A DNA stretch of 64,000 bases from an uncultured Candidatus Rokubacteria bacterium (GCA_963789955.1 CAWBMV010000006.1:32001-96000), one strand, 5' to 3'; positions 5,316 to 42,540 are shown, counted from the first letter of the stretch. Translations and numbers: made by a program. The notes: generated by a model not told the origin, from the sequence alone.

Positions 5316-5341
5316 ACCCGCGAGCCGGCTCGAGCACTCTC

Positions 5342-6436: not shown

Positions 6437-6461
6437 CGGTTCGGGCAATGTTCCCGAACCG
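6437..6461. promoter_or_regulatory. Inverted repeat, candidate activator-binding site
   Basis: CGGTTCGGG-caatgtt-CCCGAACCG has perfect 9-bp arms and lies about 90-115 bp upstream of the -24 element. Confidence 0.4.
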
Positions 6462-6484
6462 GCGGCGCCGCGCGAGGCGGTAAG

Positions 6485-13664: not shown

Positions 13665-13973
13665 GAGGCACCTCCGCGTGGCGGATAGCCGGACGTGTAC
13701 CACTGCGGGGCCGCTATGACAACGGGAATTCCGCGCCTCGACGGGCGAGGGACGTTCCGCGCACGCCATACCGACTCGGGCAGGGAGCCGCCGGACGGGA
13801 TTGAGAACCACGGGCGACCTAGCAGGCCGGAGGCATTCGGGCGGCGGGGGCTGGTGGTCATAGGACGGCAATGCCCCGTGGGGCGGATTTCCGGGAACGG
13901 CGCTTCCTTGTGCTGTATATGCTGAGGTGCTCCAGCAGAGGGACGAGGCAAAGGGGCCCGCAAGGAGGACGTC

Positions 13974-15008: not shown

Positions 15009-15018
15009 GGAGATCGCG

Positions 15019-16111: not shown

Positions 16112-16121
16112 CGCCGGGCGC

Positions 16122-17206: not shown

Positions 17207-17216
17207 GATCGCTCCC

Positions 17217-18516
17217 TTAGCCCGCGGGTGAGCGGGCGTCGACGCCGGGCTCGGGCAGGCCCATCGCGCGGCGGTACGCGGCACGGACTTCTTCGGGCTG
17301 TCCCACCAGGAACGGAAACTCTCTGCGCAGCGGCAGCCCCGGCGTCCGCTGGCGCGAGATCTCGCTCTCGACCCTGGACGAGCCGTTCACGAAGAAATCG
17401 CGCCCGATGATCGGCAGGCGCACGATGTGATTCTTGTCCGCATCGCGGATCACGCCCTTGGGCTCTTGCCCCTTCGCGACGCGTTCGGCGTCTTCGAGAA
17501 TGCGGCGGCGCATCATGATCACGCCGCGATCGCTCTCGCCCAGGTGCTCCTGCGTGCGGTCGGCGACGGTGCCCTGGCCGACCCAGGCGACGAAGTCCTG
17601 GTTCATGACGTGCGAGGTGATCCAGCGATCGGTCAGCGCGTCCTTGATCGGGCTGTACCAGTAGGGAATGCGGTCCTGCTTGTAGGGCTCCATCTCGTTC
17701 GGCACGCGATCGAAGAACCAGCCGACGCTCAGCGTGTTGTCGTCGTCGATCGGCACGCGCCACTCGAAGTGGCCGCCGGTGAACAGGCAGTTCGGCCAGA
17801 GGCAGCAGCGCCCGACCGTCCACAGCTCGTCCTGCTCGGACTGGCCTTCCAGAACGCGCCGGTAGATGAAGCCGTACTCGAACTCGTCGAAGCCGACCTT
17901 CAGGTGTGTCGGGGAGCGCTCGCCGTCGGCGCCGCTCAGCGCGCGCGACCAGTTCGAGTGGAGCCACTCGAAGTGCACGGGGTCGATCGAGTTCTCCTGG
18001 CACTGAAACCAGTTGCACGGGACCTCGGAGAACACGATCTGCACGAAGCCGTTCTCCCAGGTGAAGGGCTCCCAGGTCGGCACGAGCGGCACGGGCGGCG
18101 GGCCGAGGTAGGCCCACACGAGCCCCGCCTTCGCCTCGACCGGGTAGGCCTTGATGCGCACGCGGTCCTTGAACTTCGCGTCGGGGTGCGCGGTCTCCTC
18201 GAACGGCTGCTGCCAGACAGCGGCCCGTGTGATCCCAGAGCCAGCCGTGATAGTGGCAGCGCAGCCCGCAGTCGTCGGGCCATCCGTACGAAAGATCCGC
18301 GCGCCGATGAGGACAATGCCGGTCGACCAGGCCGTACGTGCCGGCCTTGTCCTTGTAGAGGACGAGATCCTCGCCCATGAGCCGCACGGGCTTCGTCGGC
18401 TTGTCGTCCAGCTCGGCGACGGCGGCGATCGGCATCCAGTAGCGACGCAGCAGCTCGCCCATGGGCGTGCCGGCGCCGACTTCCGTCAGTGTTCGGTTTT
18501 GCTCCTCGCTGAGCAC
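17217..18516 (-). CDS. Rieske non-heme iron aromatic oxygenase (phthalate 4,5-dioxygenase-like); frameshift near 18210
   Basis: GTPMGELLRRYW; Rieske motif CPHR...CHYHGW; mononuclear Fe motif ENSIDPVHFEWLH; QDF...QG...EHLGESD. Confidence 0.9.
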
Positions 18517-18545
18517 GGACCGATTTTACCTCCAGTCGCCGGGGA

Positions 18546-19881
18546 TCAGGGCAGCAGCGGCTTACCCTCCGCCCCGGGCAGCGCCAGGCCGAGCCGCTGC
18601 GCCAGGGTCGGGGCGATGTCTCGCATGTCGACGAGCCCGAGCGAGTCGCCCCGCGGGCACACCCGGCCCGACCACGAAGAACGCCGCGCGCAGCTCGGGC
18701 AAATCAGGCAGATGGCCGTGCGTGCCGAATCGGCCGGTCTTCGAGACGACGGCGCCGTCGAGCCCCGTGCCGACGAACCAGCCGGGCTTGCAACCGATCA
18801 GGAAGGAGGCGGCGGGAAAGCCGCCGCGCGCGTGCAGGACGTCGGCGCTGAGGACCCGATCGATGCCGTTGGCCGGGTCGGCCGCGAGCTTGTCGAGGAG
18901 CGCGCGCACCTCGGCGAGGGTTGCCGTGTCGGCCGGGTCTTTCAGCATGATGGCCGCGGACCCGCCCGCGGTCCAGGGCATGGCCTTCCAGGCCGTGACC
19001 GTCCGCCCGTTCGCGGTGATCAGACCCGCGTCCCGGAACGCGGGGAAGGGATTGAATCGGTGCTCGATCTTCACGAAGCCGTGGTCGGACACGATCGCCA
19101 CGTACGCGTTGCCGGGAGCCAGGCGCTCGGCGGCGTCGCGCAGCTTGCCGACGACGGCGTCCTGCCGCTCGAGGACGGCGAAGCTCTCCGGGGACAACGG
19201 GCCGGTCTCGTGCTCGACGTGATCGAGCGCAAGGAGATGCAAGGTCAGTAGCTGCGGGCGCTTCTTCTCGAGCAGGCGCGTGGCGAAGCTCCCGCGTCGC
19301 TCGTCGTGCTCGATGTCCTGGCCCCGCGGATACGGACCGAGCTCTGCCTCGAGCTCGGGCAGGAGTCCCTCCGTCGCGAGGGCTCGGAGCAGCTTCGCGT
19401 CCTCGTCCGTGTTGGCGCGCCAGACCTCGGGGATATTCCACGTCACCCGCGCGCCCACGCTGACCGGCCACTGAATGCTGGCGGTCGTCATGCCGGCCTG
19501 CCGGGCCACGTCCCAGAGCGTCGGCACCTTGATGTCCTCGGCGTACCAGTACCAGCCGCTCTGATTCTTTCCGAGCGGGTCGAAGGTCGTGTTGGCGAGG
19601 ATGCCGTGCCTGGTCGGCCACACGCCGGTGATCAGGGTGGTGTGGCTCGGATAGGTCACGGTCGGGATCACGCCGGCGACACCGTCGGCGAACGCGCCCT
19701 CCTTGAGAAAGCGGCGCAGGTTCGGGATCTTCAACCCGTGCGCGTCGGCGGCCGTCACGTAGTCGGGCCGCAGGCCGTCGATGGAAATCATGATGAGGAC
19801 CGGCCGCGCGCTCTGCGCCTGCGCTCCGCTGTGCAGGAGGAGAACGCCGACCGCAATGAGGACACGCAACGTGATCGTCAT
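18546..19881 (-). CDS. Secreted alkaline phosphatase/nucleotide pyrophosphatase-phosphodiesterase family protein
   Basis: Signal peptide, ISIDGLRPD, PTVTYPSHTTLITG, DHVEH, VSDHGF and GTHG; frameshift near the C-terminus. Confidence 0.85.
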
Positions 19882-19958
19882 TCTCGGAGCCCCTCCGGCG
19901 GCGGCCATGATCGCGCACTATACGCGCGGCTGGCCACCTCCGGTATAGTTGGCGCGCC

Positions 19959-20678
<720 letters not shown>

Positions 20679-28304: not shown

Positions 28305-28940
28305 CTAGACGCGGGCCGGACGCGCGTCGGACTCGGGATCGAGGTCGGCGAGGAGCGTCGCCAGCGACGCGAGGGACAGGCCCAGGGCGATGCCGGCGAG
28401 CGTGTCGACCGGCCAGTGGGCTCGCAGGATGATCCGGGCCAGCGCGACCAGGGCGATCAGGACGAGACTCGCGGCTCGCACGCTGGTGCGGGCCCGCGGC
28501 GGGAGCGAGGCGGCGAGGTAGATCACCGCGCCGAAGAAGGCCGCGGCGGCCGTCGCGTGGCCGCTCGGAAAGCCCATCGAGGCTTCCTCGGGGCGCGCCC
28601 GGCCGATGAGGATCTTCAGCAGTCCTTCCGCCGCGGGCGCGGCGATCATCAGCCCGAGCCAGATCCACCAGCGTCGTCGCGCCCTCGGGAACGCGACGAA
28701 CAGCCCGAAGGTCAGGGGCAGGAGCACCTGCCAGCTACCGAGGTGGTTGATCAGCCGCGCGACCTGAAGGACTCCCGGCGAGCCGAAGCCGAGCACCCAG
28801 AGCCGCGCCGACGCATCGCCGGGGAACGGATCGACCAGTAGCACGGCGAGGGCCAGCGCGAGGAAGCAGCCGGCGCTGGCAAGCAGGATCCGGCAGGCGT
28901 TATTTCGACGGAGTGAGCTCGGCGCCATAAAGAAGGACAT
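28305..28940 (-). CDS. PAP2-family membrane phosphatase
   Basis: KILIGRARP, FPSGH and ARIILRAHWPVD. Confidence 0.88.
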   Translation of the reverse strand: MSFFMAPSSLRRNNACRILLASAGCFLALALAVLLVDPFPGDASARLWVLGFGSPGVLQVARLINHLGSWQVLLPLTFGLFVAFPRARRRWWIWLGLMIAAPAAEGLLKILIGRARPEEASMGFPSGHATAAAAFFGAVIYLAASLPPRARTSVRAASLVLIALVALARIILRAHWPVDTLAGIALGLSLASLATLLADLDPESDARPARV

Positions 28941-28949
28941 CCAAAGCCG

Positions 28950-29549
28950 TCAGCGAAGCACCGGGGCAGGCCGCAGCGGAGCCAGTAACTCGACGATGAC
29001 CTTTCGAGCGGCGACCACATAGGCCGACTCGAGAGTGATGGTTCCCGGCGTCGGCACGGGCGCCGCCGTTCGGTGTTGGCGCCAGATCTCCTGTCCGGTC
29101 GGGGCATCGATCAGGCTGGCGGTCACCGCGACGATGACGAAGCGCGTTTCCGTCGGGGAGTCGGGCTCCCAGCGGCGGATCTCAAGGTAGAGCAATCGGC
29201 TCTTCATGCCGCTCTGGCGGGCGAGCTCGAGGGCCGACTCGCGGCTCACGGGCACGCGTCCCTTGAGCGCCGCCTGTTGAGTGATCCAGTCGCCGACCTC
29301 GAACCCTTTTTCCTGCAGGCGGAAGCGGGCTTCCGACTGAAGCACGTCGCCGACGCTGACGGCACCGGTGCGACGGATGTACCTGTCGATGAGCCCGCCG
29401 CCTTGGACGAGGAGCGGATCGGCCGTCAGATTGTTCACGGGCATCACGGCGATGGTCCCGGCGATTCCGAGCGGCGCGGATAGCGTCGTGGTCCCGCAGC
29501 TCGAAGACATCACCAGCAGCCCGAGCGACAGGAAGAGGCGGCGCGTCAT
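28950..29549 (-). CDS. Putative lipoprotein (DUF799/GNA1162-like)
   Basis: Lipoprotein-like signal MTRRLFLSLGLLVMSSSC, IAVMPVNN and LIDAPTGQEIW; ATGA overlap with the upstream gene. Confidence 0.6.
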   Translation of the reverse strand: MTRRLFLSLGLLVMSSSCGTTTLSAPLGIAGTIAVMPVNNLTADPLLVQGGGLIDRYIRRTGAVSVGDVLQSEARFRLQEKGFEVGDWITQQAALKGRVPVSRESALELARQSGMKSRLLYLEIRRWEPDSPTETRFVIVAVTASLIDAPTGQEIWRQHRTAAPVPTPGTITLESAYVVAARKVIVELLAPLRPAPVLR

Positions 29550-32086
29550 CGAGGCGCTCCGTCCGATGGCGCCGGGCGCAGACGGTGCTCCATCGACTGG
29601 AGCTGTTGCCGCAGGCGCTCCTGTTCGGATTGCAGGGTGCCGAGAGTCCTGCGGACGTCGGCCAGCTCCACCGAAGGGCCTTCTCGCGCGGCTGCGCTGA
29701 CGACGTCGGGGACCAGACGACTGACTTCTCGCATGAACACGTCGGCGCGTGCCGTGTCGCCGCGCGTCGCCGCGAGCGCGTAACGGAACAACGTGAGCCC
29801 AGCGCGTCGCGCGTCCGCGGCGGCCGGCGTCGGCGGGAGAACTGGCTCGGGACGGTCGGCGAGCTTGCGCGCCAACGCCTCGGTGTAGTCGGCGAGTGGC
29901 TCGCCGATGAGCCAATCCTTGTCGCCGGTCGCGCCCATCCGCGTGAGCCGCGGTGCGAGGAACTCGATGAGGGGCTGCTCGTCGCGGCTCACCGGGCCGT
30001 CCGGGATCACGCCCGGCGACGATGACAGGTCGCCGAGATAGAGCATCGCGATCGCGAGCGGGGCGGTGAGGAGCGAATCGCGGCTCCAGTCCGGGAGTAT
30101 GCCGAGCCGCTGAGCCATGTGGTCGAGGTCCACGCGAAGCGGTTGCCGGCTGCCGATGAGGCCGAGCACCGGGCGATTCGGGTAGAAATCGTTGCGCCAC
30201 AGCGTGACATGCGGAAACGCCGTCATGAACGTCCGCGCGATGATCTCGAACTCTTCCCGCGTGAGCTGGTAGAGCGGCAGCCACTGGCAGAACAGGCCGC
30301 TGTCGCTCAGCCGGCGCGCCGCCGTCCGGTACATGTCGACCGAGTAGAGATTGCCGGTCGAGGCGTGCCAGGGAATGAACAAGTCCGACACGATGACGTC
30401 GAACCGCGCGTCGCTGGCGGCGAGATAGCGCCGGCCGTCGTCGACCACCAGCCGCACGTCGCGCCGATCCAGCAGGCCGGCGTTCCATTTGCTGAAATGC
30501 TTCTGGGCCAGCACGGCGACCTCGGGAACGACCTCGACGACCGTAACGTCGTCGACCTTCAGCGCGATGGCCGCACTCGCACTGATGCCGGTGGCCATGC
30601 CGATGAAGGCTATCCGACGCGGCGACGGATGCAACAGCAGGGGGATCAGTCCGAGCCGGCGCTCGTTGCGCTCGGCCGCGCTGCCGCCGAGCACGTAGTA
30701 GTTATCCAGCCGCAGCTGGCGATCGTCGCCGGTGTCGACGACGCTCACGATGCCGGACGGGCTCTCGAGCAGAGCCTGTACGGTCTCACCCGGATTCAGG
30801 AAAGTCAGCGGCGCGCGGAGCGGATCGGCGACGACGACCAGAACGAGGCCCGCGTAAGCGAGCCAGCGCATACGGCGATCGATGTCGACGAGAAAGGCGG
30901 CGAGCAAGAGGGAGACGACGGCGGCCAGCAGGAATCCCGCGCGCACCCCGAGCCAGGGCAGCACCGCGAACCCTGCCGCGACCGCACCGCCGATGCCGCC
31001 GACGAGGTTGGCACTCGTCAACCCGCCGACCGGACGCGCGGAGCTGTCGCGCTCGCCGACCGCGGCCCACAGCGCCGGCAGCACGACACCCGAGGCGAGC
31101 GTCGCCGGTCCGGCAGTCAGGACGACGAGTCCCACGATGCGCGCGACGTATTCGACCAACCCTGACTGCATGCCCACGTATCGCAAGCCGCCGGTCAGGT
31201 GGACGAAGGCCCACACGCCCGCGATCGTCGCGAGGCCCGCGAGGAGGAGACCGGCTCCGGCGAGACGCCTCGGCGCGAGGCGACGAAGAAGAAGGGCCGA
31301 CAGCTCGGCGCCGGCGGCGAGCGCGAGGAGGAATACCAAGGTCACTGCGGCGAACGAATAGACCGAGTTGTGCAGTACCTGAGCGAAGAGAACGACCCAG
31401 AGGATCTCCAGGCTCATGCCGACGAACCCGAGGCCCAGCGCGACCAGTAGGAGCGAGCGCGGCGCCGATATCGTCGCGACGGCGGAGCGCGGCGCGTCAG
31501 GTTCGGACGCATCACCGATCGCCAGCGCGACGCCGCCGGCCAGGGCGCTCGCCGCGGCGGCCACGAAGTAGCAGGCCGTAACCCCGATCAGCGCCGGGAG
31601 GCCAAACCCCATCGCCGCGACGCCGATCGCGCCGCCGAGGGTGTTCAGGGCATAGAGCGCACCGCCGCGTCGCCCGACCAGGTCAGGCGCGGCAAGTGCC
31701 TGGCAGAGCGTCGGCAAGGTGGCGCCCAGCGCGGCCGTAACGGGCACCACGATGAGCGCGACGACCGCCACGCGGCCGACCGGGCCGACGGCGATCAGCG
31801 CCCGCTGCGCACCATCGGACGCGAGCAGGGAGAACGCGGCCCACGACAGCACGGCGCCGCCGCTCGCCGTCAACTCGAGTAAGGCGTAGCGCCGAACGGG
31901 CCGGAGTGGCGCGAGTCGCGCGAGCCAGGCGCCGGCGCCGAGCCCGGCGAAATAGGCCGCGACGACCGTCGCCGTCGTCACGGCCGTCGCGCCGAGCACG
32001 AGACCGGCCGAGCGGAGCCACAGAAGCTCGAGGCCGAGTGCACTCGCGCCGGAGAGCGCGAAGCACGCCCAGAGCAGCTTGTTCAC
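29546..32086 (-). CDS. Fused MFS-like membrane domain / spermidine synthase-like SAM-dependent transferase
   Basis: Multi-TM N-terminal half, then FIGMATG, VEVVPEV, DDGRRYL, FDVIVSD and GLFCQWLP. Confidence 0.85.
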   Translation of the reverse strand: MNKLLWACFALSGASALGLELLWLRSAGLVLGATAVTTATVVAAYFAGLGAGAWLARLAPLRPVRRYALLELTASGGAVLSWAAFSLLASDGAQRALIAVGPVGRVAVVALIVVPVTAALGATLPTLCQALAAPDLVGRRGGALYALNTLGGAIGVAAMGFGLPALIGVTACYFVAAAASALAGGVALAIGDASEPDAPRSAVATISAPRSLLLVALGLGFVGMSLEILWVVLFAQVLHNSVYSFAAVTLVFLLALAAGAELSALLLRRLAPRRLAGAGLLLAGLATIAGVWAFVHLTGGLRYVGMQSGLVEYVARIVGLVVLTAGPATLASGVVLPALWAAVGERDSSARPVGGLTSANLVGGIGGAVAAGFAVLPWLGVRAGFLLAAVVSLLLAAFLVDIDRRMRWLAYAGLVLVVVADPLRAPLTFLNPGETVQALLESPSGIVSVVDTGDDRQLRLDNYYVLGGSAAERNERRLGLIPLLLHPSPRRIAFIGMATGISASAAIALKVDDVTVVEVVPEVAVLAQKHFSKWNAGLLDRRDVRLVVDDGRRYLAASDARFDVIVSDLFIPWHASTGNLYSVDMYRTAARRLSDSGLFCQWLPLYQLTREEFEIIARTFMTAFPHVTLWRNDFYPNRPVLGLIGSRQPLRVDLDHMAQRLGILPDWSRDSLLTAPLAIAMLYLGDLSSSPGVIPDGPVSRDEQPLIEFLAPRLTRMGATGDKDWLIGEPLADYTEALARKLADRPEPVLPPTPAAADARRAGLTLFRYALAATRGDTARADVFMREVSRLVPDVVSAAAREGPSVELADVRRTLGTLQSEQERLRQQLQSMEHRLRPAPSDGAPR

Positions 32087-32964
32087 GCCGGGCGGAACCT
32101 GAGCGCCTGTCGGAGCCGGACCGCGCTACCGACGACGACAAGCACGGCGGCGCTCACGGCCACTTCGGCGGGGCCGAGCGGCATGTCATAGCGATACGCC
32201 GCGCAGAAGCCGACGAACGCGGTGACGCCTCCGATCGCCGCCGAGGCGATCGAGAAGGTCAGCATTCGCCGCGTGACGAGGCGCGCGGTGAGCGGCGGCG
32301 CCAGCAGGAATCCGAACGTCACGAGGGGGCCGGCCGCAAGAACGCCGAATGAGATCGTGAGGCCGCACAGGACGTAGAGCGTCGTGTCCCAGACGGTGGT
32401 CGACTTGCCGAAAACCACGGCGAGATCCCGGTCGAACGAGACGAGCAGAAATTCCTTCTGGAAGACGAGGAGGACCACGACGACGAGGCCGAGGACGACG
32501 CCGAGAAACGCCACACTCTTCTCGGTCGCGGCCAGGAGCTCGCCCTTGAGTAGATTCACGATGTGCGCCTCACCCCAGGGGTCGGCCGCCAGGAACAGGA
32601 TCGTGAGGGCGCCGGCGATCGCGTAGACCATGCCGATGCGCGCCTCGACGATCCCCCGCCCGCGCCGCTCCAGCGCCGCCAGGGTGAGGATCCCGATGAG
32701 CGTGAAGGCGGTGGCCCCGACCCGGGCCATGATGGAATCGCTGGCCCCTCCGTGGGGATGGGGCCCGACGATCGTGCGATGCATGAGGAGCGCGAAGGCG
32801 ATGCCGGCGGCGGAGAGCTGCGGAAGGGCGACCCCGAGGAAGATCATGCGGCGCAGGACGAAGTAGACACCGACGAGCGGACAGACGACGCCGACCAGGA
32901 CGCTGGCGACCAGCGCGTCGCGCAGGAGGAACCCGGGCCGCAATACCTCGAGGACCGTGCTCAT
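32083..32964 (-). CDS. Zn/Mn-type metal ABC transporter permease
   Basis: GVYFVLRRMIFLGVAL, LLVSFDRDLA, FLLAPP and YDMPLGP; hydrophobic. Confidence 0.88.
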   Translation of the reverse strand: MSTVLEVLRPGFLLRDALVASVLVGVVCPLVGVYFVLRRMIFLGVALPQLSAAGIAFALLMHRTIVGPHPHGGASDSIMARVGATAFTLIGILTLAALERRGRGIVEARIGMVYAIAGALTILFLAADPWGEAHIVNLLKGELLAATEKSVAFLGVVLGLVVVVLLVFQKEFLLVSFDRDLAVVFGKSTTVWDTTLYVLCGLTISFGVLAAGPLVTFGFLLAPPLTARLVTRRMLTFSIASAAIGGVTAFVGFCAAYRYDMPLGPAEVAVSAAVLVVVGSAVRLRQALRFRPA

Positions 32965-33659
32965 GCGCTCGACGGCACCCCCAGGTCGGCCGCGGCCATC
33001 ACGTCTTCGACCCGGCGCCGGGCGACGCGCCCATCCTGCACCCAGAACACCCCGGTGGCGAGGCCCTGCAGCATCCGCGGCTGGTGCGTGACGAGCAGCA
33101 CCGTCAGGCCCGCGTCCCGGTTGAGCCGGCTGAGGACGCCCATGATCGTCGCGGTCGCCTCCGCGTCGACGCCCGCCGTGGGCTCGTCGAGGAGAAGGAA
33201 GCTCGGCTCGGCGGCGAGCGCGCGCGCGATCAGCGCCCGCTGGGTCTGACCGCCTGAGAGCGAGGCGAACCGCTGTTGCGCAATCGCGCCGAGCCCGACC
33301 AGGTCCAGGGCCTCCGAGGCCCGTCTGCGCTCGGCCCGCCCGACACGCCGCCATGGCGCAAGGCGCGCGTATGTGCCCATCAGGACGACCTCGAAGACCG
33401 TCAGCGGAAAGCTCGGATCGAGCGACTCCCGCTGAGGCACGTAGCCGAGCGGGCTCGCGGCGCGGTCGAAGCCGTACTCGAGGGTGCCCTGGCTGACCGG
33501 CATGAGTCCGACGATCCCGCGCAGGAGGGTCGTCTTGCCTGCGCCGTTGGGTCCCAGCAGCGCGACGAATTCGCCGCGCTCGATCTCGAGGCTGACGTGC
33601 TCGAGGACCTGCCGATTCCCGTACCCGAGGCTGACGTTACGGAGTCGCAGAAGGCACAA
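32961..33659 (-). CDS. Metal ABC transporter ATP-binding protein
   Basis: GPNGAGKTT, GYVPQ, LSGGQTQR, LLDEPTAGVD and VTH. Confidence 0.92.
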   Translation of the reverse strand: MCLLRLRNVSLGYGNRQVLEHVSLEIERGEFVALLGPNGAGKTTLLRGIVGLMPVSQGTLEYGFDRAASPLGYVPQRESLDPSFPLTVFEVVLMGTYARLAPWRRVGRAERRRASEALDLVGLGAIAQQRFASLSGGQTQRALIARALAAEPSFLLLDEPTAGVDAEATATIMGVLSRLNRDAGLTVLLVTHQPRMLQGLATGVFWVQDGRVARRRVEDVMAAADLGVPSSA

Positions 33660-34583
33660 GAAGGGCCGCCGAGCCTCCTGTCACCGCTTTGACCAGGGTG
33701 CGGACATTGTAGTCAATGAGGTCGATATAGTCCTTGGCCTCGGGCACTCCGCGGACCATGGCCGGCAGCTCGACCAGCTTCGCCCCGGTGGACTTGGCCA
33801 CCGTCTCGGCGAGCCCGGCCGGATAATGCAGCTCGCGGATGACGATCTCGACCTTGGCCTGACGCATGCGCTCGATGAGCTCGGCGACGTGCGCCGGGGT
33901 GGGATCGACGCCCGGCCGAATCTCGATCGTCCCGAACTGGATCATCCCGAAGCGTTCGGCGAAGTAGATCATGTCCGGGTGATACGCCACGAATTTCTTG
34001 CCCTTCAACGGCGCGGCCTCACGCTGCCAGCGAACGATCGCCTCGTCGAGCTTTGCGTTGTAGGCGTCCCCGTTCTTCTTGAAGACCGCCGCATGCTCCG
34101 GGTCGAGACGGGAGAGACCGTCGACGATCGCCCGGACGATGTTCTTGCCATTACCGGGGTCGAGATTGAAATGGGGGTTGCCCATCGGATGAACGTCGCC
34201 GAGGGAACGATCGAGACGGGTGGGCACCTCGAGCGGCGTGACGTAGACGGAGCAGTCGATGTAGCCCGGCATGTCACGCTGGATCTTCGGGTTCCGACTG
34301 GCCTCGAGCAGAGCCGGAAGGAACGCATGCTCGGCCTCGAGCCCCATCAGGATCACGCCGTCGGCGCGATTGAGCAGGACCGCGAAGCTCGGCTTCATCG
34401 GGACCGCGTGGATGTCCTCGACGCCGGTCGCGAGGCTCGCGACGTCGACGAAGTCGCCGCCGACGTTGCGGGTGATGTCGGCCAGATCCGGGATGGTCGT
34501 CACGATCCGTAGCTTCTTGGCCGCGTCGGCGCCGCCGGGAAGCAGCACGGTCGCGACGAGAATGACGAGCAGAAATCTCTCAT
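33637..34583 (-). CDS. Metal ABC transporter substrate-binding protein (ZnuA/TroA cluster); frameshift in the signal peptide
   Basis: VTTIPDLADI, EDIH, GDVHPMGNPH, AYH, YFAERFG and PTPAH. Confidence 0.9.
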
Positions 34584-34592
34584 GATATCTCC

Positions 34593-34627
34593 GTCACCGC
34601 GTGGACCATGCTTCGCACATTGTAGTC
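34593..34627 (-). repeat. Diverged copy of the 3' end of the metal SBP gene (other copy at 33680-33714)
   Basis: GACTACAATGTGCGAAGCATGGTCCACGCGGTGAC versus GACTACAATGTCCGCACCCTGGTCAAAGCGGTGAC, 29/35 identical by hand alignment. Confidence 0.7.
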
Positions 34628-34666
34628 CACGAAGGCTGCTTCGTTGAGCGGGTTCGCGGTCGTCTC

Positions 34667-36051
34667 CTATCGATCCCGGAAGCCGTGGACGTGACTACCC
34701 ATGACGATCGTCCATTGCAGGAAGAACGCATCGTCGGTCGGCTTGGATGACGGCAAGCTCGTTTCGCTGTGGGTGTATTGGAGCCGAATGCGCTGGAACT
34801 CGGACGCCCAGATGGTGAAATACGGTGAGATCTGCCAGGTCGTGCGCGACGGATTGTCGATGTCCTGGACGTATTCCAGCAGGATCCCCGGGTAGTAGCG
34901 GCGGGTCAGGCGCGCCTCGAAATAGGTGTACGCGCCGACCGCATCGCGATATCTGAAGACCTGGGTAGGGCTGTCGTCGGTCGGGGGAATGCCCGGTCGG
35001 GCCTCGTGATTCACGAGGAGCTCGCTGCCCCAGATGAAGCCACGGTACGAGGACTGGCCCAGCGGTGCGTACCGCAACGTCATATCGAATCCGAACAGAT
35101 TTCGAGCCTTCAGCCCTTCGATTCGCACCTCCGGCGTGTAGGCGTCGCTCAGCCCGAGGTCGAGCCCTAGAGAATCGCTGAGGCTGAAGTACGTGGCCAC
35201 CCGACCCAGGTAGGTGAACTCCGAAAGATCGCGCGGTACGAGGTTGGAGACGCGATCGTTCTCGGCACCGATCTTGTTGTACATGCCGGCCGTGAACGTC
35301 AGGTACTGATCGATCGGCGCCAGCCAGCTCACCTCGACGCCGTCGGCCTGCGATTCTCCGCCGACGTACTGGTCGAGGACGAGGGGCCGGTTCACGAACG
35401 GCAGATCGTGGTCGTGGAACGTGGACAGGCGTCCGAACTCGGCGAAGAAGCGCCCGCCCTTGACCGTGAGGTTGTAGGGGAGCGCCGTCGTGACGATGGC
35501 GGCTTCCTCGACCTCGACCCCGTCCGCCGTCCCGTTGATGATGGCGTACGCCCTCGCAAACGGATCGACACTCGCCGAGATCCCCAGCTCACCCGACCGG
35601 AACTCGAAGTTCGAGTGGTTCTGCCGACTGTCGAGAACACCGAGTCGACGACGAATCCGATGGCTGGATTGAACTGAGATGGGAACGTCTTGTTCGCCGC
35701 GGCGAGTTGCGGCTGGATCTCGGCCAGGATCATTCGCTTGAGCTCCTCCGCGTCGACCGCCATGGGTGCCGGAGTCGGCGTCGCGGGCGGAGCCGCCGAG
35801 GGTATCGCCGGGGGAGGCGCTGCGGGCGCGGCTGACGGTGTGGGTGTGCCCGGTTTCTCGCCCGAGAGCTTTCGGATCAGCTCCTCCTGCTGTTTCATCT
35901 GTTGCTCGACGCGCTGCAACTGCTGCTTGACTGCGTCGAGCTCCCGGCGAAGCTGCTCTTCGCTCGCCGGCTGCTGGCTATGACCGGCGTAGGACCGCCG
36001 AGTATCACTGCCGTGCCCAGCAATACGACGACGGGAAGTAAGCACGCGCAT
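34667..36051 (-). CDS. Outer-membrane beta-barrel metal uptake protein (zinc-regulated receptor-like); frameshifted
   Basis: Coiled coil and Pro/Ala linker, SQFNPAIG, alternating beta-strand pattern and C-terminal SEFQRIRLQY...FFLQWTIVMGSHVHGF; heads the metal ABC operon. Confidence 0.75.
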
Positions 36052-36127
36052 GCGATCCTCCGTATGGACATCGAGCTTGCCGGCAGCGGAGCCGGCGTGG
36101 TCGAGCTACGTCAGTGCGCGGAGGACG

Positions 36128-36409
36128 CTAGCGGAGCGGAGGAGCGCGAGAATCGAAGCGGTAGAGCGCCTGGCCCTGGATTCGGCCCGAGCGCTGGTGG
36201 GCCGCGAGCAGGGAGGCCAGGAACAGGACCACGACCGGTACGGTTTCGGCCAGCGACGCGGTCGAGCCGAGCGCCGCCATCAGGCTGAGGTCGTGCTCTG
36301 CGTTCCAGAGCCCCGACTCGGCCGAGACGTGGACGTGGAGAAGGGTCGCGCCGGCGACGACGAACGCGACGAGGCCCAGCACCAAGAGTAGCGACTTGAA
36401 CTTCGTCAC
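36128..36409 (-). CDS. Small membrane uORF with HxH/EHD motif and C-terminal RAPP (DUF2946-like putative arrest peptide)
   Basis: N-terminal TM, LLHVH...GLWNAEHD and FDSRAPPLR*; lies directly upstream of the outer-membrane transporter. Confidence 0.7.
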   Translation of the reverse strand: MTKFKSLLLVLGLVAFVVAGATLLHVHVSAESGLWNAEHDLSLMAALGSTASLAETVPVVVLFLASLLAAHQRSGRIQGQALYRFDSRAPPLR

Positions 36410-36476
36410 GGCGCTAACAATACCTCACTTCTCGGTGTACGCAAAGCCTGCGAAGGACTCACCCGAGGGGCGTGCC

Positions 36477-36845
36477 TCACCGCCGACCCGTCACCGTGAA
36501 GGTCAAGGTCGACTCGACGACGTGGCCGTCGACCGACAGCACGCGAAAGCTCACGGTATAGCGTCCGGGCGCGAGGAGAGGCAGCGAGACCGCGAGCCGC
36601 CGGGCATCCTCGGCCGACACCGCGACGTCACGCAGATCGACCTGGGCCCCCGCCTCGTTGGTCACCGACGCCTTCGAGTACGCCGGCTCGAGGCGCTCGT
36701 TGAACCAGAGCTCGACCCGGGGCGGCGGCTCGACGAGCGCGGCTCGCTGGGCGGGGACGGACTTCACGAGGACCGCGTGCGCGAGGGCCGCGGCAGGCCG
36801 GAGCAGCAGGGCGGCCAGCCCGGCGAGGACGAGACGCCGTCTCAT
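36477..36845 (-). CDS. copC: Copper resistance protein CopC
   Basis: Signal peptide, then mature N-terminal His (AHAVLVKSVP), LWFNE and GRYTVSFRVLSVDGHVV. Confidence 0.9.
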   Translation of the reverse strand: MRRRLVLAGLAALLLRPAAALAHAVLVKSVPAQRAALVEPPPRVELWFNERLEPAYSKASVTNEAGAQVDLRDVAVSAEDARRLAVSLPLLAPGRYTVSFRVLSVDGHVVESTLTFTVTGRR

Positions 36846-37210
36846 TTGATCTTCTCGATCGCGGTGACGGCCAGGTTCGGCAGAATGCCTCGCAAGGTGA
36901 ATCGTACCGCGTCGCCGACGGCCACGGCCTCCTGGATCTTCGGCGACGCGACGCGAAAGCCCATGGTCATCGCCGGCATGTAGCCCGGGATGTCGCCGTG
37001 CGTGAGCACGATCACCCCGAGCTCGGGAAAGATCGCGCGCACGACGCCGTCGACCGTCCACTGGCGCTCGACTCCGCTGGTGGCGGCGGTGCGCGCCTCG
37101 TCGAGCTCGCGCTCGAGCCGGGCCGCGCGAAGCCCCCAGAAGGCATAGCCCCAGCCCACACCGACGACGAGCGCCAGGTTGATCAGGAGCACCGCCTTCC
37201 AGGCCCGCAT
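36842..37210 (-). CDS. Membrane-anchored CusF-like copper-binding protein
   Basis: LTHGDIPGYMPAMTMGF...VGDAVRF (His/Met CusF motif). Confidence 0.8.
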   Translation of the reverse strand: MRAWKAVLLINLALVVGVGWGYAFWGLRAARLERELDEARTAATSGVERQWTVDGVVRAIFPELGVIVLTHGDIPGYMPAMTMGFRVASPKIQEAVAVGDAVRFTLRGILPNLAVTAIEKIK

Positions 37211-39187
37211 CAGTGCACGTGCTCCTCCGGCGCCGCCTCCGCCGTGATCTTCTCGTCGTTGAGCTGCTGCACCTGGGCCATGAACGAATCGAGGTCGCCG
37301 GCCTCGCCGCCGCTTCGAGTGATGGCGCGGATGTAGCCCTGGCGATCGATGAGGAGCTCGACGTGCGGAGCGACCGCGAACATCCGATAGGCGGCCACGA
37401 TCGTCTCGGCGCCCTCGGTGACCACCGGGAACATGATGCGCGGGTCCGGACCGAGATGACGGATCGCGTCCGGGTCGGCGTCGATCGGCACCGCGATGAC
37501 CTCCACGCCGAGCATCGCCAGGCTTCCCTCGTGCTGGGCGATCTGAGTCATCCGCGCGCGCGAGCCGGGCAGCGCGTACAGCACGACCAGCACGTTGCGG
37601 CCCCGATAGTCCTTGAGCGTGCGCGCCGGCGTCGGGCCGACCGTGAACGTGAAGTCGGGTGCGACGAGCCAGCGCCGGTCGCGCTCGATCGTGGGTCCCA
37701 TGCCTCGGGCGCCGTACCCCGCCGACAGCGCGCGCAGGAAGTTGATCAGCTCCCAGCGTTGCTCCTCGCCGAGCCGCGAGTCGAATCCGGGCATCCCGGA
37801 TCCCGAGATCCCGTGACTGATCCACCAGAACAGGTCGCCCGCCGTGTGCTGCGCGGTGTGCGGCGCGCGCAGGTCGGCAGGGGACCGCGGAAGCCCTCGG
37901 CCGTCGGGGCCGTCGCCTGCGCCCCGCGGCCCGTGGCAGCCCGCGCAGTTCGTCTGGTAGAGCGCGGCGCCGGCCGTGATCGCGCCGGCCTGATAGGGTA
38001 CCGAAGGGCGCAGATACGTCGTCGGGTACGCGTCGATCGCCAGCGGCGGAAGCGCGAGCCCGGCGCCGGCCCCGAGCAAGGCGAGCGCGACCATCGCCAG
38101 GGGAAGCCGCCAGGCGCGCATCGCGATCCCGGCGATCAGGGCCAGCAGACCGATCACACCGATCTGGCTTCCGATCAACGCACGCGCCGTCTCGTCGGCG
38201 CGGCCCTCGAGCGCGGCGAACGACAGGCGGATCGTGAACGGCCAGAGTGGCGGCTCGTGACGGGCCGGCGGCGTGACGCTCATCGCGGCGACGATGGCGA
38301 CGATCGCCAGCGCCAGGATCGCCTCCACGAGCACAAATCCCGCGAGTCGGCGCATCGCCGGACGACCGACCGCCGGCCCGTCGCCGCCGAGACGGGCCAG
38401 AAGAACCGAGCGATTCACTGCGGCCAGCACGAGAATGAGCACCAGCAGCCCAAGCTTGGCGAGGAGCAGACGCCCGTAGGTCGTGCCGACGAGCCCGGCG
38501 ACGTTGCCGACGTGGGTGACCGCGAGCGTGGTGCCCGTGATCGCGAGCAGGAGGATCACGCCCAGCGCGGCGCGCGAGAAGCTCCGCGCCGCGAGCACCG
38601 CGTACGGCCGCGCATCCGCGCCGGCGTCCGTCGACGCCTTTTTCAGGAGAAGCGCCAGCGGGAGCAGCCCTCCCACCCAGATGCCGGCGCCGAGCACGTG
38701 CAGGGCGTCGACCGCGATCGCCCGCGCGGTGTCCGGCTCCACGGCGGCGGCGTGACCCGCCGCCGCGAGCGGCACCAGGGCCGCGACCCCGAGCAGCATC
38801 GCTTCGCCTCTCGCCGCCCGCCAGTCCGCGCGCCGCGCGACGGACACGCGCAAGGACAGGAAGGCGACGAGCATCGACGAGGAACCCGGCGCGCACGAGC
38901 CAGACGTGGCCGGCCTGGGTTTCGACCAGCACGCGTCCGATCGCGCGGGCTTCGAGCGCCGCGGCCGGCCGATCTTCGAAGAGGGCCGCCTGCGTACCGA
39001 CCACGACGAGGCCGGACGCGAGCGCGACGAGCGCGCAGCCCCACGCCCAGGCGAGCACGCGCCGCTCCCAGGCCAGTGCGGTCGCGCGATCAGAGCGGCC
39101 TGCCATCACGATCATCGCCGCGGCGCCGACGAGGAGGACCGAGCTGGCGAGATGGAACCAGCGAGCGGTGAGACCGAGCGCGTACAC
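37210..39187 (-). CDS. copD: CopD membrane domain + cytochrome c + redoxin-like fusion; frameshift near 38880
   Basis: RWFHL, AGHAAA, LHVLGAGIWVGGL, YGRLLLAKLGL, heme motif CAGCH, GDLFWWISHG..MPGF, APDFTF..TLKDYRG and C-terminal EEHVH. Confidence 0.85.
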
Positions 39188-39253
39188 CCGGCCAGTGTAC
39201 CGGATGGGCAACCGGCATTGAGTCCGGCGAGTTTCTTCGCTACAGTGCCATCC

Positions 39254-39764
39254 ATGCTGCGGGTCCTGGCGATGCTCGCCTTGGCCGCTTTCGTTCTGGC
39301 CGCGGGCCCGGCCGACGCTCACGTCGGCAGCGCCGAGCGCGCCGTGTTCGAGGCGCCGGAGCTTCCGGCGGCCTCGGAAGCCTCTGGTCCGACTCAGTTC
39401 CTGGTAGCGGGCGACTCGACCGACTTCCCGTGGCCGATTGCCCTGATCGTGCTCTTCGCCGCGGCGACCCTCACGCGGCGGCGTTCCCGCGGACTGGTCG
39501 CGGCGGTCCTGGTCGCTCCTGATCGCGATCCTCGGTGTCGAGGCGGCGGTGCATTCGGTGCACCACGCGTCCGGCGGCCAACCCGTCGCGTGTCCGACCG
39601 CCTCGGTCGCCGCGCATCTCGACGGCACCACGGTCGTGGCGCTCGCGCTGGACGAGCCCGTCCACCCGGTCGGCACCGCGACCGTGCTGTCCGGTCCGCG
39701 CCTCGCTTCACTCCGCTCGCTCGATCCGTCGCAGCCCCGGGCTCCCCCGTTCGCGCTCGCGTAG
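39254..39764 (+). CDS. Membrane uORF with HSVHH..C motif and C-terminal RAPP (DUF2946-like putative arrest peptide); frameshift near 39515
   Basis: Signal-like N-terminus, TM segments, EAAVHSVHHASGGQPVACPTA and SQPRAPPFALA*. Confidence 0.7.
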
Positions 39765-39803
39765 ACATCGCGCGACGCTCCAAAAATTTCCCAGGGGGGT
39801 CCC

Positions 39804-40791
39804 ATGCAAGGGAAGACTCTATTCGCGTGCGCGCTCGCGCTGGCGCTCTCGTTCGCGACGTTCGACGCGGCTCAGGCCCACGGCCTGATCGGCAAGCGGT
39901 TTTTCCCGGCGACCTTGGCCACCGACGATCCGTTCGTGGCCGACGAGCTCTCGTTGCCGACCATCTCCTATCTCAAGCTCCGGGGCAGTGAAGACGCGCC
40001 CCCGACGAAACAGATCGACCTGAGCGGCGAGTTCTCGAAGCGTCTGAGTCCCGAATCTGGGCATCTCGCTCGCTGGGACCTTCACGATGCTGGACCCGGA
40101 CGAAGGCTCGTCCGTGAGCGGCTTCGACAACCTCGAGGTCTCGGCGAAGTACGTCTTCTTCAAGAACGCCCCGCACGAGCTCCTGCTGGCGGGCGGTCTC
40201 AGCTGGGACGTGGGCGGCACCGGCAGCAAGAAGGTCGACGCCGAGAGCTTCGACACGTGGACGCCGCAGCTCTTCTTCGGCAAGGGCTTCGGCGATCTGC
40301 CGGATCAGCTCGAGCTGATGAAGCCCTTCGCGGTGACCGGCGTGTTCGGCCTGGCGATTCCCTCGCGCGTGCACACGAAGACGTTCGAGACCGACGAAGA
40401 CGGCACCGTGGACGTGAAGAAGCCGCTGAATCCGATGGTGTTCCAGTGGGGGTTCAGCTTCCAGTACAACCTGCAATACCTGCAATCCTACGTGCGCGAC
40501 GTCGGGCTCCCGGCGCCGCTCAACCGGATGATTCCGATCGTCGAGCTCGTGCTCGAGACGCCGCTCGACGGGCGGGACGCCGGGCGCACGACCGGCACCG
40601 TGAACCCGGGGATCATCTGGTTCGGGCGGTATTTCCAGCTCGGGCTCGAGGCGGTCATTCCGGTCAACCACGACATCAGCAAGAACATCGGCGCCCTCGC
40701 GCAGATTCACTTCTATCTGGACGACATCCTGCCGCAGGTCTTCACGTGGACGCCGTTCCACGGCGTCCTCGGGCCGACGCAGCCGCAGTGA
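39804..40791 (+). CDS. Putative outer-membrane beta-barrel protein, copper-associated; frameshift near 40055
   Basis: Signal peptide with mature N-terminal His (AHGLIGKRFFPATLATDDP), SGFDNLEVSAKY and alternating aromatic strands; cotranscribed with copC/copD. Confidence 0.7.
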
Positions 40792-41139
40792 GCCGACTGC
40801 TGGCGGTGGCGCTGCTTCTGCTCGCTCCGAGCTGGGCCGGGGCTCACGCGTTTCCCGACCATTCCGAGCCCCGGGTCGGGCACACGGTGGAGGCGTCGCC
40901 GCCGGCAGTCCGCATCTGGTTCGACGGGCAGATCGAGCCCGTGTTCAGCAAGCTTCGCGTCGAGGACGCCAACAACCGACAGGTCGACAAGGGCGACTCG
41001 CGGGTGAATCCGACGGACGCGAACAATTCTCGAGGTCGGTCTGCCGCCGCTGGCGCCGGGCCGATATCGCGTGTTCTGGAGCGTCGTCGCCCGTGACGGC
41101 CACCGGACCGAGGGCGATTTTGCTTTTCGGGTGAAATAG
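40788..41139 (+). CDS. copC: Copper resistance protein CopC, second copy; frameshift near 41025
   Basis: AHAFPDHSEP, RIWFD and GRYRVFWSVVARDGHRTEG. Confidence 0.88.
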
Positions 41140-41155
41140 ACGGGACGCCCCAGAC

Positions 41156-42540
41156 GTGATCGCCCTGCCTCTGCACGAGCTGCTCCTGGCGACCGGCGGC
41201 CGCTGGCTCGGACTGCTCGCGCTGGCGGTGCTGGTCGGCGGCCTCGTGCTCGACTGCGTCGTGCTCCCGCGCCACGCCGGAGAGCTCGTGACGGCCCGGC
41301 GCCGGCTCCAGCGGTGGATCAGCCTGGCGATCGTGCTACTGCTCGTGACGTCCGTGATCGATCTTCTGGCCCGAGCGCGCGTGATGAGCGGGGGCGACCT
41401 CTCGCAGGTGGGCACGGTGCTGCCGCTCGTGCTGACGCGCACGCACTTCGGCACGGTGTGGATCGCGCGCGCGATCATTCTCGTGGCTCTCCTCGCACTC
41501 TCCGCGTTGCGTCGTCGCCGGCAGCCGGATCGTCGGGTTCGTGCTCGCCCTCGGCGTCGCGCTGACCGGTACGCTCACCGGGCACGCCGCCGACTGGGGC
41601 GATCGCTCGTTCTCCGTGCTGGTCGACTGGCTTCACGCGGTCGCCGCCACCGCGTGGACGGGAGGGCTGTTCGGTCTGGCGATCGCGCTCAGCCCGCGGA
41701 GCGCGTTCAGGATCGGCGCCTCATCCGAGCTGCTCCGTACGGTCGCGCGGCGATTCTCGCGTCTCGCCGGGTACTGCCTGCTGGTCGTCGTCGCCAGCGG
41801 TGTCTACAACGCGTACGTTCAAGTGCCGACCTTCGCTTCGCTGTGGACCACGACGTATGGAGCGGCTCTCCTGCTCAAGGTCGTGCTCGCGCTGGTCCTC
41901 GCGCTGCTGGGCGCTGTGAATCGCTACCTGGTGCTGCCGGGTCTCGGGGCGACCCGCCCGCGACGGCGCGGACGGCTCCGCCGGCTCTGTCGCATCGCGC
42001 TCTTCGGCGCCGCGACGGCTCAGGGAGCAGCGCGAACCCGGCTCTCGCGGCTGGTCGGGCGCGAAGCGGCGGTCGCGGTTGTCGTGTTCGGCTGTACGGC
42101 CGTCCTCGGCGAGTCCACCCCCAAAACCCACGAGGCCCACGCCTCCCACGTCGGCGATCGAGAGGAGGACGGCGCGCATCACGATGCAGGAGCTGCATGC
42201 GAGCGGCGGCGTGCCGAAGGGCTGGATGTTCACGCCGCCCTCGGGCGACGCCGCCAGGGGCCGTGAGGTGTTCGCGCGGCTCGAGTGCTACACGTGTCAC
42301 GCGGTGGCCGGCGAGACGTTCCCGCGGCCCTCGAAGGTCGGGCCCGCGCTGAGCGACGTCGGCCACCATCATCCGCCCGGCTATCTCCTCGAGTCGGTCA
42401 TCAATCCGAACGCCGTGATCGTCGAGGCGCCGGGCTATACTGGCCCCGACGGACGCTCGATCATGCCCGACTATCGCGACAGCCTCTCGACCCGCGAGCT
42501 GATCGACCTGATCGCCTACCTGAAGAGCCTCGGAGGCTAG
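41156..42540 (+). CDS. copD: CopD membrane domain with C-terminal cytochrome c, probably one fusion; frameshifts near 41520 and 42170
   Basis: THFGTVWIAR, TGHAADWG, DWLHAVAATAWTGGL, RRFSRLA, YGAALLLKV, then GDAARGREVF..CYTCH..MPDY..LIAYL. Confidence 0.8.

Follow-up and report, generated by a model that had tools for sequence, protein, structure and literature searches.

The 64,000-nucleotide (nt) stretch of DNA analysed here, called the window throughout, covers positions 32001-96000 of contig C6 (CAWBMV010000006.1) of a metagenome-assembled genome from an uncultured soil bacterium of the Candidatus Rokubacteria (GCA_963789955.1; 6.77 Mb, 38 contigs, 87% complete). Its G+C content is ~69%, and the closest Atlas clusters belong to Methylomirabilota/Rokuibacteriota. 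At 28305-42540 the window carries an island of metal-transport genes, in which two genes for predicted outer-membrane barrels, barrel A and barrel B, are each preceded on the same strand by a small open reading frame (ORF). These upstream ORFs, uORF-A and uORF-B, encode predicted membrane proteins with a histidine-containing cluster and, shortly before the stop codon, the sequence Arg-Ala-Pro-Pro (RAPP), which is known from ribosome-arresting peptides. An earlier note on this DNA had pointed to the pair as lying directly before barrel genes, and both ORFs are found there, in an arrangement far beyond chance expectation. We argue that they are probably regulatory leader genes whose nascent products sense metals. 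The leaders, the barrels and the elements that join them are as follows, in a gene map built from third-position G+C content (GC3), six-frame reading and Pfam scans:

36128..36409, minus strand: uORF-A, predicted leader protein of 93 amino acids (aa); the start possibly lies up to 5 codons further upstream
36137..36148, minus strand: RAPP codons of uORF-A (CGC GCT CCT CCG), predicted stall site, from sequence and homologue conservation
36120..36126, minus strand: anti-Shine-Dalgarno GTCCTCC, 2 nt past the uORF-A stop, from sequence and folding
36056..36061, minus strand: Shine-Dalgarno GGAGGA of barrel A (start ATG 36051), from sequence and folding
34667..36051, minus strand: barrel A, with signal peptide, coiled coil, Pro-rich linker and porin-like beta-barrel, in three frames in the assembly; assigned through the fold of the orthologue in genome G015
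39254..39764, plus strand: uORF-B, predicted leader protein of 169 aa, frame broken by one extra base near 39514/39515; delimited by orthologues
39738..39749, plus strand: RAPP codons of uORF-B (CGG GCT CCC CCG), predicted stall site, from sequence and folding
39794..39799, plus strand: Shine-Dalgarno GGGGGG of barrel B (start ATG 39804), from sequence and folding
39804..40791, plus strand: barrel B, predicted outer-membrane beta-barrel of 328 aa, frame break near 40049; low-confidence orthologue model

The gap between leader stop and barrel start is 76 nt for A and 39 nt for B. The operons had been described as starting with leader and barrel; the leader does precede the barrel in both, but uORF-A is no clear operon head, as a copC gene ends 67 nt upstream of it.

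Frame breaks in the assembly

Several genes of the island switch frame without a stop codon, as judged by GC3 and six-frame reading, namely uORF-B, both barrels, the copC of operon B and both copD genes. Compared with an 89%-identical relative (G004), the region 39200-41200 contains three isolated one-base insertions, at 39515, 40049 and 41020. The pattern extends beyond the island: 18 isolated one-base insertions and 5 one-base deletions separate 13964-20000 from an 87-90% identical relative, and 4197-10725 shows 5 insertions and 4 deletions by the same kind of comparison. Contigs from four independent public Illumina runs (at least 88% likeness) have one base fewer at 38874/38876, 39514, 40049/40054 and 41016-41024. 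The extra bases are most likely errors of assembly, and the genes intact in nature; decay into pseudogenes was rejected because of the assembly-wide insertions together with the Illumina contigs that lack the extra bases. Where the analysis called for a complete protein, we therefore worked with intact orthologues.

For uORF-B, this changes the gene model. It had been taken for a 71-aa ORF (39549-39764), but those codons form only the end of a 169-aa protein whose ATG lies at 39254 and whose frame is broken near 39514/39515. Contigs from a metatranscriptome run (X16) cover 39487-39767 and the barrel B/copC region; such contigs are no proof of transcription, as DNA carry-over is possible. Across the window, gene-breaking single-base insertions are widespread (for example 15133-18647, 7575-10640, 38874, 39514, 40049 and 41020). 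The assembly looks like an unpolished long-read product, and the insertions may be the cause of the 87% completeness estimate.

Two leader families with a fixed distance between ligand cluster and RAPP

The coding character of uORF-A is supported by its GC3, which reaches 0.93-0.95 in its own frame. The protein consists of an N-terminal hydrophobic anchor, an HxH...WNAEHDL cluster (H25-x-H27 ... N36-x-E38-H39-D40), a second hydrophobic stretch (residues 49-72) and the C-terminal sequence DSRAPP-LR-stop, with RAPP at residues 88-91. A word-indexed search returned 19 close homologues, in whose alignment H25, H27, N36, E38, H39, D40, L41, R88 and A89 never vary and D86, S87, P90 and P91 hardly do; DSRAPP followed by 2-3 residues forms the C-terminus in 18 of the 19. 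A profile search of 1.84 billion cluster representatives extended the family to 196 members at E<=0.001 (80 at E<=1e-10). Among the 149 new members listed, 136 carry R[AG]PP no more than 8 residues from the end, 105 of them with exactly two residues after it, and 122 have the pattern HxH...[NHD]x[ED]H[DE]. The distance from EHD to RAPP is 46-48 residues in 111/115 members, and in an alignment of 105 sequences the sole invariant positions are H25, H27, R88, P90 and P91. The linker between cluster and RAPP is thus variable in sequence and constant in length.

By six-frame searches, family A occurs in 119 of 251 genomes of the phylum, with 107/158 in its own taxonomic family, 10/21 in the sister family, 1/21 in one further family and 0/50 in the remaining ten families. 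These tallies include the unpublished genomes G115, G232 and G233, and one of the 36 distinct loci used below (L044) comes from G115. Close members have no conserved Cys, and distant relatives have a single one, in NE[QE]CPL. This variant, in which Cys stands instead of His/Asp where close members have NAEHDL, is seen in the class-level relative L109 (G062:C121) and in L110-L114 from genomes of the sister family, and barrel A and ZnuA still follow it. In some of these genomes, three to five A-type RAPP/RGPP ORFs cluster within ~15 kb. Tandem pairs of A-type leaders, ~500-600 nt apart, lie at G172:C36:18815-19869, G165:C166:10371-11456, G140:C368:11179-12334 and G182:C11:273497-274584.

uORF-B differs in size and in ligands. 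In its intact form, as deduced from orthologues, it is a 169-aa protein with three hydrophobic segments. The version in the window shows a signal-like segment, PWP-transmembrane segment-RRRSR, a further transmembrane segment followed by HSVHH-x8-C-x7-H, a linker of 40 aa and RAPP-FALA-stop, the C-terminus QPRAPPFALA-stop ending at 39764. Orthologues start with M(L/R)RVLA... in the signal-like segment and continue with a variable loop, PWP-hydrophobic-RRRSR and hydrophobic-E-A-V-HSVHH; after x8 come A-C-P-x-A-S-x-A-A-H-L, ~40 variable residues, (P/G)RAPP, four residues and the stop. We found 76 database homologues, most of them exactly 169 aa long. RAPP plus four residues ends 73 of the 76, HSxHH is present in 71 and C-x7-H in 74, and the distance from C-x7-H to RAPP is 40 residues (48 from the Cys) in 68/69. 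Outside RAPP, the invariant residues are E, H, S, H, H, C and H, with the single invariant Cys lying in C-x7-H; H23, E28 and W60 are conserved in the N-terminal part. As in family A, the linker is poorly conserved in sequence and fixed in length.

Family B was found in 92 of the 183 genomes of the order that were searched (a tally that includes the unpublished G115), and a related-locus search of the genome contigs with a family B alignment found 2 loci. The genome studied here has three further full B-type paralogues that end in RAPP, at C37:350273-350779 (-), C37:343153-343680 (-) and C1:561994-562311 (+) (loci L100, L101). The genes behind them encode a TonB-dependent receptor (Plug and barrel domains), a putative CopC-like ORF with a cytochrome c, and a cytochrome c whose tail is rich in Met and His. 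At C37:337445-337675 there is a fourth match, which is partial.

The two families have a common design. In both, a hydrophobic segment directly precedes the ligand cluster and basic residues lie N-terminal to that segment (Kyte-Doolittle). The RAPP codons vary synonymously, with 22 distinct 12-mers encoding R[AG]PP in the 36 A loci and 18 in 33 B loci, which points to selection on the RAPP peptide. Homology between A and B is not apparent by hhalign (probability 1.7%), and we therefore treat them as separate. RAPP and the histidine motifs are conserved in these alignments, as the earlier reading required, and so is their spacing; the sensor motifs differ, being His-only in A and His with one Cys in B. 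The motif had been called terminal; RAPP is indeed present, but it is subterminal, 2 (A) or 4 (B) residues before the stop.

Alternatively, the leaders might work in the membrane as normal mature proteins, for instance as metallochaperones facing the periplasm or as accessory subunits of channel and transporter, with RAPP as a structural or sorting motif and no regulatory stall. The size of uORF-B, with its 169 aa, three hydrophobic segments and conserved H23, E28 and W60, fits this idea, as do the plausible metal ligands of both proteins and the presence of B-type paralogues before several gene types in the same genome, as might be expected of an accessory metal handler. However, a ligand-to-RAPP linker that is fixed in length and poorly conserved in sequence fits a tunnel ruler better than a folded domain, RAPP keeps a constant distance of 2 (A) or 4 (B) residues from the stop, and an anti-Shine-Dalgarno element lies at or beside its codons. 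A recent survey reports that RAPP and RGPP are excluded from bacterial proteomes and cause an arrest that elongation factor P (EF-P) does not relieve (Fujiwara et al., EMBO J 2025, PMC12992588). We consider a purely mature function of the leaders unlikely.

The leaders precede predicted outer-membrane barrels and metal transport genes

The genes behind the two barrels are:

33637..34548, minus strand: ZnuA-type (cluster A-I) metal-binding protein, from Pfam and structure search
32961..33659, minus strand: ZnuC-like ATPase of an ATP-binding cassette (ABC) transporter, from Pfam
32083..32950, minus strand: ZnuB-like ABC-3 permease; the listed ORF extends to 33354 and the Pfam match comprises residues 144-408
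40788..41139, plus strand: CopC of operon B, frame break near 41020, from Pfam
41156..42540, plus strand: CopD-cytochrome c fusion of operon B, two frame breaks, from Pfam and GC3

This order is conserved, as had been predicted for RAPP uORFs in related genomes. A barrel-A homologue follows the A-type ORF after ~40-100 nt in 36/36 distinct loci, the window included, and ZnuA is the next gene after barrel A in all seven longer loci of the same taxonomic family (7/7). Behind the B-type ORF, barrel B and CopC are found in 7/7 close loci. The two modules also occur together in G015, and in tandem in the class-level relative L109.

No curated Pfam or NCBIfam family matches either leader or either barrel above its cut-off, and only weak sub-threshold matches were seen. 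The barrel A of the window is divergent (28.7% identity to the G015 copy over 328 aa), and its fold was assigned through that orthologue. The G015 model (predicted local distance difference test, pLDDT, 75.2; predicted template modelling score, pTM, 0.67) shows a large beta-barrel together with a signal peptide, a coiled-coil helix and a disordered linker. Among solved structures, the best Foldseek matches are VhChiP, MOMP, OprP/OprO, OmpT, PorB and OmpF (E 1e-11 to 1e-9), with TM scores of 0.45-0.66 for VhChiP, MOMP, OprP, OmpT and PorB (E 1e-11 to 1e-10), so that barrel A matches the fold of general porins (16-18-strand). The orthologue model of barrel B, built from 8 sequences, is weak (pLDDT 58.1) and shows a beta meander; all its top matches are outer-membrane barrels (FapF, E 1.5e-7; NanC; the COG4313 channel 4rl8), at a confidence too low for a subfamily. 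As far as these models go, barrel A is firmly and barrel B tentatively placed among outer-membrane barrels, and the neighbouring genes suggest that both serve import.

The metal context of the operons appears to differ, in keeping with the original idea that the two leaders might be tuned to different metals. The ZnuA-type protein matches the PF01297 profile (E 1.1e-53), and its closest solved relatives, among them the Synechocystis ZnuA-type protein, AdcA and Lmb, are zinc binders (alignment to 7lm7). The zinc-type ligand set of solved cluster A-I proteins consists of three His plus Glu/Asp. By this likeness of the binding protein, zinc would be the metal of operon A. Operon B contains copC-copD, and CopC and CopD act in copper uptake. 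The ligands of the leaders, His/Asp/Glu in A beside a zinc-type ABC transporter and His with Cys in B beside CopC/CopD, likewise suggest different metals for A and B.

Comparison with known arrest peptides

In CruR (Bp2923) of Bordetella pertussis, a CXXC motif is followed after 45 residues by RAPP, which lies three residues from the C-terminus; copper relieves the arrest, upon which Rho terminates transcription, RAPP mutations abolish downstream expression and changes in spacing spoil regulation (Roy et al. 2022, PMC9426467). Like CruR, the proteins studied here appear to be small exported or membrane-anchored products encoded before an outer-membrane metal-uptake gene, with a ligand motif at a fixed distance from RAPP (45 residues in CruR, 46-48 in A, and 40 from His or 48 from Cys in B) and RAPP 2-4 residues before the stop. 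Unlike CruR, they lack PF11162 (DUF2946) and CXXC and would use His/Asp/Glu (A) or His and one Cys (B) as ligands. The downstream gene encodes a porin-like or small barrel instead of a TonB-dependent receptor, and the gap measures 39-76 nt with a Shine-Dalgarno mask rather than 162 nt with Rho-dependent termination. The resemblance to CruR thus appears to be one of design only: anchor, ligand cluster, ruler, RAPP and short tail.

DUF2946 uORFs had been cited as precedents for the pair; by profile, neither ORF is a member of that family. PF11162 was not matched among the families listed for 19 close members of family A, nor was it present in the 25 of 45 matched families that were listed for 105 members. 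It reached E 0.15 at best in family B (2/10 members), and 14.8 bits, with a cut-off of 23.7, in six-frame translations of the genome itself. An Atlas language-model neighbour, 24% of whose members have DUF2946, has a score of 0.90; we treat this as a lead only.

In CutF of Rhodobacter capsulatus, the stall melts a stem-loop that hides the ribosome-binding site of cutO (Ozturk et al. 2025, preprint, 10.1101/2025.02.05.636593), and a stall-melted mask on the ribosome-binding site of the next gene is also the geometry predicted for uORF-B. CutF differs in being a DUF2946 member that turns on a detoxifying oxidase at high copper; the downstream genes of our leaders look like uptake genes, and the opposite logic is therefore expected.

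Leaders outside DUF2946 are also in print. The survey mentioned above finds that small membrane or secreted proteins encoded upstream of metal genes are enriched in RAPP/RGPP close to the C-terminus, documents the CruR arrest by toeprint and describes arrest peptides of S. lividans with conserved His/Cys before copper genes; its supplementary lists contain RAPP uORFs before CopC (133 and 75 rows), carbohydrate porins (54) and a zinc-regulated TonB-dependent receptor (9) (PMC12992588). uORF-A and uORF-B resemble these non-DUF2946 membrane proteins, which lie upstream of copper genes, in their C-terminal RAPP, conserved His/Cys and upstream location. The covered portion of the supplementary list has no row labelled 'metal ABC', 'zinc ABC' or 'substrate-binding', nor is any row there assigned to Rokubacteria or Methylomirabilota, and families A and B are apparently not named in it, which is not proof of their absence from the full list; the main text, as far as covered, mentions neither zinc nor porin, CopC or CopD (PMC12992588). 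Our literature search found no paper that links nascent-chain translation arrest to znuA. The survey already covers RAPP leaders that precede CopC, porins and zinc-regulated receptors; what appears to be new is the existence of two sequence families built on the CruR/CutF principle.

SecM, ApdA and ApdP (RAGP/RAPP) share the stall motif with our leaders and have an N-terminal export signal, a stall site few codons before the stop and a Shine-Dalgarno-masking stem, features that are predicted for our leaders as well. They differ in sensing secretion or membrane insertion, in controlling sec/yidC genes and in having no conserved metal ligands. The first-described RAPP arrest peptides reportedly all monitor protein localisation, so one might ask whether uORF-A and uORF-B are true arrest peptides that respond to the pulling force of Sec or YidC, as do SecM, MifM, ApdA and ApdP, with the His and Cys residues serving another purpose. 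Both leaders have predicted membrane anchors, and the second hydrophobic stretch of uORF-A (49-72) would sit in the tunnel during a stall. Against such a role, the downstream genes encode metal transporters and not Sec/YidC components, the invariant non-RAPP residues are two histidines in the 105 A sequences and E, H, S, H, H, C, H in B, and the spacing is in line with the sensor-to-RAPP distance of CruR. This makes a pure secretion sensor very improbable.

Anti-Shine-Dalgarno elements at or next to the predicted stall codons

The mRNAs of both leaders carry an anti-Shine-Dalgarno sequence at or next to the predicted stall codons. In the minimum-energy fold of operon B, GGGCUCCCCC, the R-A-P-P codons, pairs with GGGGGGUCCC, the Shine-Dalgarno sequence of barrel B and its spacer. 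This Shine-Dalgarno sequence is 97% paired, 93% of that with the segment from RAPP to stop, and its unpaired probability goes up from 0.06 to 0.40 when a ribosome footprint from -12 to +14 about the first Pro codon is barred from pairing. Among relatives, those with a GGAGGG Shine-Dalgarno sequence have CCA CCC TCC, and those with GGGGG(G) have either CCC CCG or, in the tail, a run of CCCC. Because the place of the masking segment differs by codons from one orthologue to the next, pairing partners were ranked by position. The 12-mer that pairs best with the Shine-Dalgarno sequence starts between -9 of the P-site (peptidyl-site) codon and stop+12 in 19/26 B loci (4.4 expected if uniform), in most of them at -7 to +7 and thus on the stall codons; 26 of the 33 loci were counted, as 7 had no recognisable Shine-Dalgarno sequence within 300 nt.

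In operon A, GUCCUCC, two bases past the stop, pairs with GGAGGA of barrel A. The Shine-Dalgarno sequence is 100% paired, 82% with stop+1 to +21, and the mask starts ~17 nt downstream of the P-site codon, where a stalled ribosome would have its leading edge. CCTCC occurs no more than 25 nt past the stop in 15/36 A loci, and a relaxed form in 24/36. The best-pairing 12-mer lies in the zone from -9 to stop+12 in 18/36 loci, compared with 5.3 expected; its start is at +13 to +20 in eleven of these loci and at -5 to +2 in the other seven. In 8/36 A loci, the best-pairing 12-mer lies ~95-101 nt upstream of the P-site codon, in CCTCCC-type codons of the second hydrophobic stretch, and this recurrent site may be a second, alternative mask. 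For all these folds, it should be considered that G+C-rich RNA pairs readily.

Transcriptional control

Fur/Zur, MerR/CueR, CsoR and two-component regulators were absent from the 16 ORFs of the island (E<=0.01) and from 36 further ORFs of the window (E<=1e-5). The earlier note had recognised no metal-sensing regulator in the window, which agrees with these scans; beyond it, two Fur-family genes lie on other contigs of the genome, and control therefore need not be purely post-transcriptional. One could imagine that metal control is mainly transcriptional, exerted by Zur/Fur or another regulator encoded elsewhere, and that the leaders provide translational coupling only. In addition to the two Fur-family genes, the geometry of operon A is compatible with simple coupling, as its mask lies just past the stop and any ribosome finishing uORF-A would open it. 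Simple coupling would, however, leave unexplained why an invariant RAPP keeps a fixed distance from the invariant ligands and why the mask of operon B coincides with the predicted stall codons, and a promoter scan of 35900-39900 detected no sigma-70-like site, with no operator search made. We regard control by transcription alone as improbable.

At 39217-39256 (+), below the threshold of the scan, an element TTGAGT-17 nt-TACAGT, also present in the 89%-identical relative, stops 7 nt short of the uORF-B ATG; it may be the promoter of a leaderless or near-leaderless uORF-B transcript. The plus-strand operon diverges from the minus-strand genes at about 39105-39253, with ~150 nt between the copD block and uORF-B.

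Other genes of the island

The remaining genes all lie on the minus strand:

36477..36845, minus strand: CopC, 67 nt upstream of uORF-A and on the same strand, from Pfam
36842..37207, minus strand: CusF-like periplasmic copper protein, from Pfam
37210..39105, minus strand: CopD-cytochrome c-thioredoxin-like (AhpC/TSA) fusion, frame break near 38874-38876, from Pfam and GC3
28305..32086, minus strand: large membrane protein with a spermidine-synthase-like domain (frame-broken) and PAP2 phosphatase, at the end of the minus-strand gene string, from Pfam

No RAPP ORF precedes the copD-cusF-copC block (36477-39105, -), as had been noticed before. Both CopD fusions are found intact in G015. In that genome (L027, G015:C1, 9003-9968, -), a gene for a YVTN/YncE-type beta-propeller lies between cusF and copC, at a place where the window has no such gene; the propeller matches the zinc metallochaperone AztD weakly and in part (E 1.6e-7, far under the cut-off). 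A PAP2 gene also follows the zinc-type module in two other genomes (L103, L106).

Discussion

The two modules show a conserved leader anatomy, conserved synteny, a fixed spacing between ligands and RAPP and anti-Shine-Dalgarno elements at the positions given above. Taken together, they lead us to propose, with a probability of roughly 0.72, that uORF-A and uORF-B are RAPP-type regulatory leader genes that act as CruR/CutF-like nascent-chain metal sensors. What we infer from these features is that the ribosome stalls, that the stall depends on metal, that A responds to zinc and B to copper, and in which direction control runs.

In the proposed mechanism, the leaders would enter the inner membrane co-translationally and anchor there with the N-terminus inside, which would place the ligand cluster on the periplasmic side. 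The ribosome would stall at Arg-Ala-Pro-Pro, at which point the cluster would be 40-48 residues behind and just outside the exit tunnel and translocon. Binding of metal to the nascent chain might alter the tension on the chain and hence the lifetime of the stall, and the duration of the stall would set the expression of the downstream outer-membrane channel and of the genes behind it, that is, the ZnuABC-type importer (A) or CopC and CopD-cytochrome c (B). The direction that we prefer is that of CruR, in which metal ends the stall and import genes would be off when metal is plentiful. In operon B, a stalled ribosome would occupy the mask of the ribosome-binding site of the barrel gene, so that a stall would mean ON, with barrel B and CopC-CopD being made. 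The same logic is attractive for operon A, where the mask would lie at the leading edge of the ribosome and coupling could possibly proceed via termination-dependent unmasking or Rho.

Several points weigh against this proposal. At the protein level, neither family matches PF11162 or contains a CXXC motif. Because uORF-B is 169 aa long and the N-terminal two-thirds are moderately conserved, it may also function as a mature protein. The putative zinc assignment is based on the similarity of the binding protein to solved zinc binders. At the RNA level, the Shine-Dalgarno sequence of barrel A stays paired under a footprint at RAPP (unpaired probability 0.01 to 0.01), and a ribosome at the stop codon loosens it partly (0.19). 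Its pairing partner, like that of barrel B, is heterogeneous between orthologues in partition-function folds, and the positional enrichment overstates the independent support, given that the loci are related and that Pro-Pro codons are inherently complementary to a G-rich Shine-Dalgarno sequence. Lastly, with copC only 67 nt upstream of uORF-A and two Fur-family genes elsewhere, further layers of control are likely.

A bolder version of the nascent-sensor proposal is possible, though we hold it to be doubtful. Here, A would be a zinc-sensing, Cys-free arrest peptide (His/Asp/Glu) for a porin and a ZnuABC-type importer and B its copper-sensing counterpart, and a single island would discriminate two metals purely via the ligand chemistry of unrelated nascent peptides that share the RAPP brake, with two mRNA read-outs (a mask on the stall codons in B and at the leading edge in A). 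The link to zinc and the two mask geometries are the parts most worth testing.

Annotators would do well to call and retain both leader ORFs and not to take the many broken genes in this assembly for pseudogenes. The list of RAPP leaders is extended by two sizeable unannotated families (A, 196 clusters; B, 92/183 genomes), and the folds suggest that Pro-Pro stall codons can double as an anti-Shine-Dalgarno element. To our knowledge, copper is the only metal for which sensing by a nascent chain has been demonstrated (CruR, CutF). If the proposed reading is right, this bacterium would hold a natural side-by-side pair of sensors in one organism, with the same stall motif and ruler length and with different ligands and target transporters. 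Such a pair would allow one to ask how nascent chains tell metals apart, and whether zinc uptake is controlled in this way.

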